A stretch of 64,000 bases of DNA from a virus (IMGVR_UViG_3300020451_002055), one strand, 5' to 3'; counted from the stretch's first letter, positions 33,381 through 63,832 are shown. Translations and numbers: made by a program. Notes: generated from the letters alone by a model not told the origin.

Positions 33381-33608
33381 GTCGTTGTATCTTTCGACCC
33401 ATCGCTCTATCCGTCACTCAACGATACGGACGAGAGGAAAGTCGGGACTGCACTTCGCGAATGAGGGAGGCCTAAACAGCCGTTTGGACCGCAGAGGCAG
33501 CAACTCAAACAGACCGGAGAGTGGGCGAAGCTCGTTGATGGTCGGGTAGAGGCCAATAGAGAAATGATGGGATAGAACAGGATCCCGCTTACGGATTGAT
33601 ACGACAAC
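33381..33608 (+). ncRNA. rnpB: RNase P RNA, minimal form (about 228 nt)
   Basis: CR-I GAGGAAAGTCGGG, CR-V AACAGGATCCCGCTTA, CR-IV TAGAGAAATG, P1 GTTGTATC/GATACGAC, P2 CCCATC/GATGGG, P5 CTGC/GCAG-CAA, L15 GGGTA. Confidence 0.9.
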
Positions 33609-33679
33609 GCGAGATTGATGTAACGGTAACATGGCTGCCTTCCAAGCAGTTCTTACCGGTTCGAATCCGGTATCTCGCA
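33609..33679 (+). tRNA. trnG: tRNA-Gly(TCC), second copy
   Basis: GCTGC-CT TCC AA-GCAGT. Confidence 0.9.
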
Positions 33680-33722: not shown

Positions 33723-34613
33723 ATGAGATACTACCCCAACAAAGATTGCCCTTGGGACTACGAGGAAGTTAATCGCATGCAACCAGAGGACTGGATGCTC
33801 GATCTTCTCAAGCTCAATCCAAGCTACTGCTCTTGGGGTCCGCATGAAGATTACATGTGGAATGATAAAGAGCATAGCTGGGCGAGCAGGCTTCTCTATG
33901 ATTCTTGGGATGACTTCAATATTGCTCTCGATGATCTGAATGAGGTAGTCAACTTCTACTTCGAAATCGGCAGAGAATCTGAGAAGTGCTATCTTTGCAA
34001 TGGGAGTGGCATTCATCCCGACGCTCAATGGGTAAGCGAGTCGTTCTATGAGCATTGCTCTCCGTTCATCTCAAGACCTCCGGATTACAGCCTTGTTCCG
34101 GACTACTTGAAGAACCTCTTCCCTGATGATCCGAGTCCGAAGGCTCTCGATTACGGTTCGTTTCCTTCTGATGAGATTCTCGACAGGTATCATCCTGATT
34201 TCCGCGAGTTCTGCGAGAAGATGAGAGATGGCAGGGGCTATTGGGGCGATGATGACCTGGACGCTCTTGATCTAGAGTCTCTTGAAGAGGCAGGCCGTCC
34301 TTACGACCCCAATGACAAATTCGGGATGGATGCGATCAACCGCAGCATCGTCTCTCGGTCTCGATGCGAAAGGTGGGGCATTCCTCACGAGTGCCCTGAA
34401 TGCGATGGGCATGGATACATCTATCAGGATGAGGCTGCCCATGTCGGTCTAGTCCTTTGGCTTCTGCACCCTCGAAAGGGAGCATCAAGAGGCGTTCATA
34501 TCAAACGGGTTGAGCAGGCTCAGCTACCCGAGGTCTATCAGTTCCTCAGAGAAGCAAGAGAGCGAAATGCCAATCGGTTTGGCAGGATTCCCGACGATGT
34601 GGACAAAGCCTAG
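33723..34613 (+). CDS. hypothetical protein with two CxxCxGxG zinc motifs
   Basis: CYLCNGSG and CPECDGHG; GAGG RBS. Confidence 0.75.
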   Translation: MRYYPNKDCPWDYEEVNRMQPEDWMLDLLKLNPSYCSWGPHEDYMWNDKEHSWASRLLYDSWDDFNIALDDLNEVVNFYFEIGRESEKCYLCNGSGIHPDAQWVSESFYEHCSPFISRPPDYSLVPDYLKNLFPDDPSPKALDYGSFPSDEILDRYHPDFREFCEKMRDGRGYWGDDDLDALDLESLEEAGRPYDPNDKFGMDAINRSIVSRSRCERWGIPHECPECDGHGYIYQDEAAHVGLVLWLLHPRKGASRGVHIKRVEQAQLPEVYQFLREARERNANRFGRIPDDVDKA

Positions 34614-60334: not shown

Positions 60335-60639
60335 TGGACCCTCTTGTTCAAATCTACGGCCAAGGCGATTGCCATGACGAGGCTTTCATCTGCGGATCAG
60401 AAGCAGGTCTCCGCGCTCTCGGCGAGGCGTTGATCGCCGCAGCCGATTCAGGACAGTCCAAGGTTGAAGCTTTCGTCAGCGATGGCGAGGGTTACGACAT
60501 TCATGTGCTACGGAGAAACTACCAGCAGATGCTCGGAGTTTGGTTTCCGTATCACGATCTACCCGAAGGTATGAGCCGGAATCCGGACGGCAAACTAACC
60601 CATCCGGCTCACCTTATTGACCGCGAGGAAGAATCATGA
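60334..60639 (+). CDS. hypothetical phage protein
   Basis: TAATG overlap; HDEAFICGSEAGLRAL motif. Confidence 0.7.
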   Translation: MDPLVQIYGQGDCHDEAFICGSEAGLRALGEALIAAADSGQSKVEAFVSDGEGYDIHVLRRNYQQMLGVWFPYHDLPEGMSRNPDGKLTHPAHLIDREEES

Positions 60640-61298
60640 TCTCTACCCGATTTGGCGACCGACCTCTCTGCGTTATCAGCGATGGCCTCGGCGGACGCGA
60701 CGACGCTTCAAGGATTTACCTGCCGCCTCGGAACAAGGAAGACAAGTACGGCGAGCATGCAGGCGACATCGAGAAGGAGCATGATGGCAGCGGATGGGTT
60801 GTCCGCAGTCTGGCTCTTCACGACTACGATCAGTCGTCGATCAGCCGCCTCAAGTTCAAGGGAAAGAAGGCTTGCGGCGAGTTTGTGGCCGAGACCTACA
60901 AGCAGATCAAGGCTGCTCGTGATGCTTCTCCGGTACCTGAGGATATTCGAATCTTCATTGAAGCGGTCGGGCGGGATCTTGCAGACGAAGACCGGGCACT
61001 CCGAGGAGCTTTGCTCAACCATGTTTCTAAGTGCCGCTGGATTACCGATCTCGCAAAGAAGCATGGAATCGGCTCGCTCTACTTGCGGGTGGAGGACGAT
61101 GCTGCGAAGATGGTGCAGCGAATCATGAACTGGAAGAGGGAGGGGGATGACATTCCCTTCTTCTCCGAGGCGATTCTTTACGAGTTGATCGGTAAAGAGG
61201 ATGCGCGGTCGCTCCTCGCCCTAATCAACGACATGACTATGGAGATCGACCCGATTGAAGCGGTCGATCCCCGAAGAGAAGAGGTTGCAGAGGCATGA
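60636..61298 (+). CDS. hypothetical protein
   Basis: ATGA overlap; GAGG RBS. Confidence 0.7.
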   Translation: MISTRFGDRPLCVISDGLGGRDDASRIYLPPRNKEDKYGEHAGDIEKEHDGSGWVVRSLALHDYDQSSISRLKFKGKKACGEFVAETYKQIKAARDASPVPEDIRIFIEAVGRDLADEDRALRGALLNHVSKCRWITDLAKKHGIGSLYLRVEDDAAKMVQRIMNWKREGDDIPFFSEAILYELIGKEDARSLLALINDMTMEIDPIEAVDPRREEVAEA

Positions 61299-63758: not shown

Positions 63759-63832
63759 GTCCCGGTAGCTCAATTGGTAGAGCCGAGGATTCTAAATCCT
63801 TGAGAGTACGGGTTCGAGTCCCGTCCGGGGCA
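63759..63832 (+). tRNA. amber suppressor tRNA(CTA), second
   Basis: GAGGA-TT CTA AA-TCCTT; acceptor GTCCCGG/CCGGGGC, A73. Confidence 0.9.

Follow-up and report, generated by a model that had tools for sequence, protein, structure and literature searches.

RNase P RNA counts as a ribozyme universal to cells, and its bacterial type has been considered to need the specificity domain (S domain), whose CR-II/CR-III region reads the tRNA elbow, for efficient function in vivo. The GGU of L15 pairs with the 3' CCA of the tRNA, and the regions of bacterial RNase P that contact the protein RnpA are the J18/2-equivalent, J2/4, P2-P3 and P15. Several organellar P RNAs are inactive without dedicated proteins. 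Archaeal type T RNAs (Thermoproteaceae; RF02357) lack most of the S domain and are reported to be active (PMC7191817, PMC3579882). Likewise, the E. coli catalytic domain alone (C domain; the engineered Eco CP RPR) is active with and without C5, needs a P6-like pairing and can dispense with P18, and isolated C domains cleave less efficiently than full-length P RNA (PMC5839562). For plastid forms such a dependence on dedicated proteins is described (PMC4264200). Among viruses the nearest precedent is an RNase P-like RNA of camelpox virus, which bears a loose structural likeness only and did not process pre-tRNA in vitro (PMC3001073). A literature search, thin on subscription journals, found no description of a phage- or virus-encoded RNase P RNA and no paper supporting the phage reports of reduced P RNAs that a first-pass annotation of the DNA studied here had asserted; RNase P is not mentioned in the DLP6 genome paper or the huge-phage paper.

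We examined a 64,000-nt stretch of DNA of a large marine phage (IMGVR_UViG_3300020451_002055; hereafter the window), one strand of which carries a short gene beside a tRNA-Gly. Compared with E. coli M1 RNA (rnpB; RF00010), the encoded RNA has the same catalytic elements in the same order (P1-P6, P15-P17, CR-I, CR-IV and CR-V), and the bulged U in P4, the J5/15 GCAA and the L15 GGU are also common to both. In contrast to M1 RNA, the reduced form, which we call mini-P, measures ~225 nt, lacks P9-P14 (CR-II/CR-III) and P18, and is phage-encoded beside a tRNA. Type T and mini-P RNAs are both natural, with the catalytic domain kept and most of the specificity domain missing. Type T RNAs, however, have an archaeal-type catalytic domain and archaeal Rpp proteins, are the cell's only P RNA and have a P2 of 3 bp (PMC3579882) against 6 bp in the window, and their reduction is independent of that of mini-P. 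Eco CP RPR is likewise a catalytic domain without an S domain, and its behaviour fits what the phage RNAs keep (a long P6, 5-9 bp) and drop (P18, S domain); it is a laboratory construct of lowered efficiency, whereas the phage RNA keeps a conserved P7 and hairpin stub and is under natural selection. Mitochondrial and plastid rnpB RNAs are also shrunken, type-A-derived and found next to tRNA genes in small genomes, but they are AT-rich and, unlike mini-P, often lack some catalytic-domain helices too. The camelpox and phage RNAs are both virus-encoded with a likeness to P RNA, which in the phage RNA amounts to clear sequence-and-structure homology with the core intact.

The first-pass annotation had proposed the RNaseP_bact_a covariance model as a check on its reading. 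Run as a permissive cmscan, RF00010 matched positions 33386-33607 (+) end to end (model positions 1-367) with 56.5 bits and an E-value of 1e-16, and the bacterial type A model was the best match within its clan for the RNA at 33381-33608. All the catalytic-domain landmarks it had listed within about 228 nt (P1-P5, P15-P17, CR-I, CR-IV, CR-V and the L15 GGU) were recovered by cmscan and helix mapping (Table 1). The comparisons confirm 33381-33608 as the gene of a reduced type-A RNase P RNA without most of the specificity domain and P18. The candidate stable RNA would be ~222-228 nt long, against ~350-400 nt for bacterial type A P RNA, and the 3' end of P1 can be drawn to 33602 or 33605. At the Rfam gathering thresholds the non-coding RNAs of the window are 31 tRNAs and a tmRNA (ARAGORN finds 36 tRNAs), and RNase P is absent from this output (gathering score 100 bits); since 56.5 bits falls below that score, the locus is missed by standard pipelines. 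Single-sequence folding of the RNA was uninformative (z -0.65 against shuffles) and did not recover the RNase P fold, which contains two pseudoknots.

We define the mini-P group by model R1, with a CR-I-to-CR-V core of ~150-190 nt in which P7 and a single hairpin replace the S domain. The window RNA has a core of 158 nt and an insert of 38 nt after the P6 strand. R1 scores 137 bits over 33434-33591, a value that is partly by construction since the window belongs to the R1 training set, and this is the sole R1 match in the window, which thus holds a single copy. The J5/15 GCAA of the RNA corresponds to the E. coli A248 position.

Table 1. Elements of the mini RNase P RNA and the adjoining tRNA in the window, and mini-P loci of Planctomycetes genomes
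Feature	Position	Strand	Pairing, sequence or source
Mini RNase P RNA gene, maximal extent	33381-33608	+	paired body 33384-33605
P1 5' strand	33384-33396	+	pairs with 33592-33605, except for a U-U mismatch and a bulged U
P2 5' strand CCCAUC	33398-33403	+	pairs with GAUGGG 33566-33571; 6 bp
P3 hairpin, extended form with internal loop	33405-33434	+	cmscan alignment
CR-I: J3/4 GAGGAA and P4 5' strand with bulged U	33434-33446	+	pairs with CCCGCUU 33584-33590
P5 5' strand CUGC	33448-33451	+	pairs with GCAG 33497-33500
P6 5' strand CUUCGC	33453-33458	+	pseudoknot with L17 GCGAAG 33525-33530; 6 bp
Specificity-domain remnant	33462-33493	+	P7-like stem UGAGG/CCGCA, 'GA', P8-like hairpin 33469-33481, 7-nt linker GUUUGGA
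P5 3' strand and J5/15 GCAA	33497-33503	+	sequence, helix mapping
P15-P16-P17 arm	33504-33552	+	L15 3' side GGGUA at 33544-33548
J15/2 replacing J18/2, with CR-IV, ..AGAGAAAU..	33553-33565	+	P18 absent (cmscan alignment)
J2/4 and P4 3' strand (CR-V)	33572-33591	+	cmscan alignment, covariation
3' tail AAC, equal to the 5' leader (-3 to -1) of tRNA-Gly	33606-33608	+	sequence
tRNA-Gly(UCC)	33609-33679	+	Rfam tRNA 64.1 bits, ARAGORN; CCA not encoded; TTT next
Mini-P as only detected P RNA	G005:C5:196561-196784; G006:C18:157905-158125; G017:C102:5774-6007		also G008, G048, G049, G050

The cmscan alignment delimits what was lost. About 140 S-domain positions of the model are reduced to ~42 nt in the window, and P9-P14 are missing together with CR-II/CR-III. 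Of the 23 nt of P18 a single one is left, and the optional P19 stretch is missing, in agreement with the claim that both are absent. Furthermore, the earlier estimate of ~45 nt between the two P5 strands proved exact: helix coordinates give 45 nt, consisting of the P6 strand and then a P7 stem with one hairpin. Across 42 relatives the insert after the P6 strand measures 33-52 nt, and most share one layout, a 5-bp stem NGUGG/CCACN, 'GA', a variable hairpin and a ~7-nt linker GNUUGNA, which the window insert fits except for one A-G mismatch in P7. We read the insert as P7 plus a P8-like hairpin because of its position and the UAAC loop of one relative (L004). Drawn in one fixed register, P7 was 59% paired; the stem slips by one position between members, and per-sequence folding resolved it. 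From the missing CR-II/CR-III it follows that the RNA would recognize its substrates independently of the elbow. The first-pass annotation saw in this reduction an adaptation to giant or non-canonical tRNA-like RNAs of the window's genome, an idea that found no support: the same architecture is shared by ~40 other distinct loci whose tRNA arrays are ordinary, by a Stenotrophomonas phage in culture and by genomes of bacteria, and is therefore a family trait.

Other reduced P RNA designs were seen in viral and metagenome contigs (L008/L015, L012, L018, L027, L067, L069, L106; L006/L037/L075; L016/L024). One has a different mini S domain, AAGCCGAAACUUAAAAAGCAAUGG, one has almost no insert and a P19-like hairpin, and one keeps part of the S domain with P15-P17 seemingly missing. 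They look like several independent reductions.

Relatives were collected by pattern scans anchored on CR-I and CR-V, which detected reduced P RNAs on 18 IMG/VR contigs and 91 metagenome stretches, with 80 unique cores among them, ~40 of the window's type. In a plain MAFFT alignment of 42 window-type sequences, RNAalifold alone recovers P1, P2, P5, P15, P16 and P17, with double compensatory changes in 27 of 31 pairs, and in P1 each pair carries 20-25 such changes. In L094 and L096, the window's closest relatives, both strands of P1 are swapped for a different, still complementary sequence. Paired cells in the alignment reach 99.7% for P4, 99.4% for P5 (four pair types at two positions), 95% for P15, 94% for P2 (several pair types per position), 94% for P16 and 92% for P17, with compensatory changes in P15, P16 and P17. 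The length of P3 varies among relatives, and in L002, L003 and L005 it shrinks to CUC-UNCG-GAG mini-hairpins.

The two pseudoknotted helices, P4 and P6, are left unscored by the Rfam model and so give independent evidence. A P4 pair that the search pattern left free is Watson-Crick in 75 of the 80 unique cores (C:G 34, A:U 25, G:C 16). Paired cells of P6 amount to 81.5% in the alignment, against 25-67% for shifted controls; examined without an alignment, at least 5 contiguous pairs form in 39 of 42 sequences (mean 6.8, against 4.4 for shuffled loops), by many unrelated sequences. Because the main patterns forced the presence of CR-I and CR-V, a second search used peripheral motifs alone. Its loose pattern returned mostly chance matches, with ~12 of 46 unique sites real; these members differ in P4 sequence, the helix covarying, and all keep GAGGAA, the bulged U and ACAGAA. 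The J5/15 GCAA, which lies outside the search patterns, is invariant at G, A and A and nearly so at C in the 42 relatives, and the L15 GGU, also outside the patterns, is kept in all members. AG..AAUG of CR-IV is conserved across the family, and the deletions have the same clean boundaries throughout. Together the data show compensatory changes in every helix across ~40 diverged relatives: the fold is under selection.

Several matches were set apart from the family. Five apparent reduced forms (L022, L077, L121, L127 and L130) proved to be Planctomycetes P RNAs of full length, with an internal GGAAAGUC that fitted the pattern, and eight loci (L026, L050, L087, L099, L110, L114, L123 and L124) were set aside for masked N runs. 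Very AT-rich sequences that resemble reduced P RNAs, from metagenomes of soil and plant-associated origin (the L020 group of 13 loci, L019, L030, L034, L040, L051 and L056, and further L057, L060, L073, L078, L080, L098 and L104) look organellar (mitochondrial rnpB-like), not phage-like. On a 105-kb viral contig, a GOLLD RNA with a tRNA inside lies ~2 kb downstream of the mini-P (L002:5662-6168; 151.6 bits, gathering score 150).

The RNA stands directly 5' of tRNA-Gly, as had been noted, but not at the adjacent base as the first reading had it: the spacer from P1 to tRNA +1 is 3-6 nt, a tail of AAC or GACAAC depending on where P1 ends. In all 42 loci the tRNAs close by share the strand of the P RNA, and in 12 of these a tRNA starts 11-22 nt after GCUUA (17 nt in the window), against the 3' strand of P1. 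The identity of the abutting downstream tRNA varies (Gly, Met, Thr, Lys, Leu, Ala or Gln; it is tRNA-Met in L094 and L096), and several loci have a further tRNA adjoining the P RNA at its 5' end. By this layout the RNA behaves as an additional unit of the tRNA array and would be released by tRNA processing. Judged by geometry, cis-cleavage across the 3-nt tether seems unlikely. Viral contigs contained no relative of the downstream ORF (33723-34613), conservation of a neighbouring protein gene was not seen, and no match to a sigma-70-like promoter or intrinsic terminator adjoins the gene.

None of the 36 tRNA genes of the window (16090-63832) encodes the 3' CCA, and TT follows directly after 35 of the 36. 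The spacers inside the arrays often read (T)TTCAT, with U as the -1 base. These features suggest that the window tRNAs would undergo RNase Z-type 3' processing and CCA addition. In tRNA-Gly, position -1 is C. In some phage T4 precursors, 3' maturation and CCA addition precede 5' cleavage. A GGU kept among CCA-less tRNA genes would point either to the same order here or to another role for the GGU. Two window tRNAs with the anticodon CUA (51482-51556 and 63759-63832; tRNA-Pyl according to ARAGORN) are of the amber-suppressor type, and TAG may be reassigned or read through in the window's phage.

The mini RNase P RNA is transcribed. Metatranscriptome contigs from two different studies, 99-100% identical to the window, fall wholly inside it: X3 (203 nt) spans 33400-33602 with one difference, and X5 (175 nt in all) matches 33434-33605 with none. 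The flanking ORFs and the tRNA are uncovered in both runs. A random fragment of the same size would fall wholly inside the 228-nt gene with a chance of ~5%, so two such contigs point to a stable small RNA. They are assembled contigs of depth 3-4 that do not define strand or true ends and do not reach the 5' strand of P1; their ends at 33602 and 33605 coincide with the two possible ends of P1, which is a weak hint. In a DNA run from what is probably the source sample, coverage extends over the entire 901 nt; the RNA run X21, also of this probable origin, showed no coverage of the stretch.

We searched for the protein partner with a profile of five bacterial RnpA proteins and one phage RnpA. None of the 797 stop-to-stop ORFs of the window encodes it (best E-values at noise level, 0.3-0.6, against 1e-60 to 1e-75 for the positive controls), as the first-pass annotation had stated. 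The window is 13% of a genome of ~487 kb, and this absence does not extend to the whole of it, because two related phages of 630-640 kb encode RnpA. LR756502 (642 kb) carries a mini-P at 614650-614804, which is the window RNA's nearest relative in GenBank and has the CUAAACA hairpin loop in common with it, and RnpA at 525186-525488 (L207:1498-1800; PF00825, 52 bits, RNR motif). LR745206 (635 kb) carries a full-length mini-P at 502106-502266 (105 bits with R1, which was not trained on LR745206) and RnpA at 76462-76740 (L208), 52% identical to that of LR756502. Both RF00010 and RF00373 miss the LR745206 RNA; RF00010 also misses that of LR756502 over the whole record, where RF00373 gives 32 bits. 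Among 50,697 phage records searched by tblastn, these two uncultured phages are the only ones with RnpA genes, and both carry mini-P, which fits mini-P as an RnpA-binding subunit.

RnpA was not found in two complete mini-P phage genomes. One is the L001 contig (183,648 bp, CheckV 100%), which has terminal repeats, and the other is that of the cultured Stenotrophomonas phage vB_SmaS-DLP_6. The latter carries an unannotated RNase P-like RNA of ~249 nt (KU682439.2 105774-106022; L143:403-651; 54.7 bits) with a variant P4 (GAGGAAGUUC / GGCUAC) and extra hairpins after P15, and an annotated tRNA-Arg(CCG) begins 3 nt downstream of it. BLAST of the window RNA against GenBank phages returned tRNA-Gly matches only at 1e-5 and, at E up to 10, mostly chance matches within capsid and tail genes.

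Mini-P RNAs are present in bacterial genomes as well. The cultured isolate Achromobacter anxifer LMG 26857 has one (G004:C5:14076-14299; L128; 82.7 bits) in an 8-kb stretch with 32 tRNAs, and a canonical rnpB elsewhere (202 bits, contig C15). A search with the whole Achromobacter tRNA island gave tRNA matches only. In a census of 41 Gemmataceae genomes, canonical P RNA was found in 36 (200-284 bits) and mini-P in three, those three without a canonical form; outside the census, four more Planctomycetes MAGs have mini-P and no canonical P RNA, and one has both. Thus canonical P RNA is absent from 7 of 8 Planctomycetes genomes with mini-P and present in 36 of 38 Gemmataceae without it, a split for which Fisher's p is 5e-6, or 9e-4 with the census genomes only. 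The argument relates to MAGs of unknown completeness, to the part of the first-look candidates that was scored and to a sister subtype whose insert measures 49 nt. Two of these genomes have the mini-P on contigs of 198 and 367 kb with ordinary cellular genes around it, including planctomycete PSCyt2/PSD1. The rnpA gene is present in five of five genomes tested, namely four of the eight Planctomycetes and Achromobacter; among the seven mini-only genomes, the three tested (G005, G006 and G008) have it. Mini-P may have displaced rnpB in these seven genomes. One Gemmataceae MAG (G007), which has canonical and mini-P RNAs, also shows two extra RNase P-like matches ~250 nt apart (C117:60008-60371 and 60619-61042; 90 and 66 bits).

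From the homology, the selected fold, the presence in RNA libraries and the gene layout we infer catalysis, a protein partner and an order of processing. Mini-P would be co-transcribed with the tRNA-Gly that directly follows, and the 3' end of the ribozyme would be freed when RNase P, either the host enzyme or mini-P made earlier, cuts at tRNA +1. The ribozyme would most likely bind RnpA, that of the host unless the remaining 87% of the genome encodes one. The pair would then remove the 5' leaders from the phage's tRNAs (at least 36), tmRNA and tRNA-like RNAs, holding the substrate by its acceptor stem, -1 base and 3' end (J5/15, L15 GGU) with no measuring of the elbow. We consider it probable that the RNA is such a working catalytic subunit, using RnpA to process phage tRNAs and adding leader-removal capacity for the tRNA arrays. 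This reading draws on the RF00010 homology, the covariation, the kept catalytic and substrate residues, the RNA contigs, the link to phage RnpA, the Planctomycetes distribution and the precedents of the E. coli C domain (PMC5839562) and of type T RNAs (PMC7191817, PMC3579882). Counted against it are the score under the Rfam gathering threshold, the A-G mismatch in the window's P7 stem, the C at -1 of tRNA-Gly, a GGU kept among CCA-less tRNA genes, the missing promoter or terminator match nearby, RNA evidence that consists of contigs of depth 3-4, complete mini-P phages without RnpA, a Planctomycetes argument based on MAGs and a sister subtype and not on the exact window RNA, and the lower efficiency of isolated C domains (PMC5839562).

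The missing elbow-reading CR-II/CR-III and the complete mini-P phage genomes in which RnpA was not found would also suit an active ribozyme of changed specificity or partner, acting alone or with an unrecognised phage protein, whose main targets are, instead of ordinary tRNAs, non-canonical RNAs (giant tRNA-like RNAs, tmRNA, mRNA-tRNA junctions). We regard this, which is the reading of the first-pass annotation, as unlikely, since the same architecture lies within ordinary tRNA arrays in ~40 other loci, no P RNA other than mini-P was found in some bacteria with a normal tRNA set to process, the RnpA-contacting regions of the catalytic domain are kept in the window RNA, a conserved neighbouring protein gene is wanting, and nothing specific to the window's genome speaks in its favour. 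Less likely again is that the RNA acts without catalysis, as a decoy or regulator: by binding host RnpA or pre-tRNA it would divert the tRNA processing of the host or shut it down. Such a role would agree with an RNA that kept its protein-binding half and lost the domain that raises affinity for substrate, and the poxvirus RNase P-like RNA is inactive in vitro (PMC3001073). A decoy, however, would not need the conserved J5/15 A, L15 GGU, P4 bulged U, GAGGAA and ACAGAA, the last three of which persist even in members found without using those motifs; moreover, two phages carry their own RnpA as well as mini-P, some bacteria appear to depend on the mini form alone, and RNase P activity is a need of any phage that has 36 tRNA genes. 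Very improbable is the view that a captured host rnpB is decaying here into a relic with no present function. The large deletions relative to the bacterial consensus and the score below the gathering threshold would suit a relic, but the compensatory changes across the family contradict it, as do deletion boundaries that are clean and identical family-wide and the recovery of the RNA from RNA libraries.

Beyond the working catalytic subunit that we favour for the window, a wider picture is possible though rather doubtful, in which mini-Ps are mobile catalytic subunits that require RnpA alone, with no domain for reading the elbow, travel with phage tRNA arrays and displaced canonical rnpB in some Planctomycetes, the window copy being active, released by RNase P from its own transcript with the tRNA and, through relaxed recognition, able to mature non-canonical tRNA-like RNAs.

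New here are the RNA-library evidence for the window copy, the joint occurrence of RnpA and mini-P in two huge phages, the copy that annotation had missed in a cultured phage and the complementary distribution in Planctomycetes. The mini-P family is widespread and missed by standard annotation: its genes all fall below the Rfam gathering threshold and are unannotated, including that of the cultured DLP_6, which offers a laboratory system. A virus is seen here with its own copy of a ribozyme viewed as universally cellular. A natural, conserved and transcribed P RNA without a specificity domain is a counterpart to decades of engineered mini-P RNAs. If the Planctomycetes pattern holds, the mini-P architecture would be sufficient for life with a normal tRNA set. 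Whether the S domain is dispensable in vivo becomes directly testable with a form that many tRNA-rich phages carry, two of them with a phage RnpA, and that appears to be the sole P RNA of some free-living Planctomycetes.
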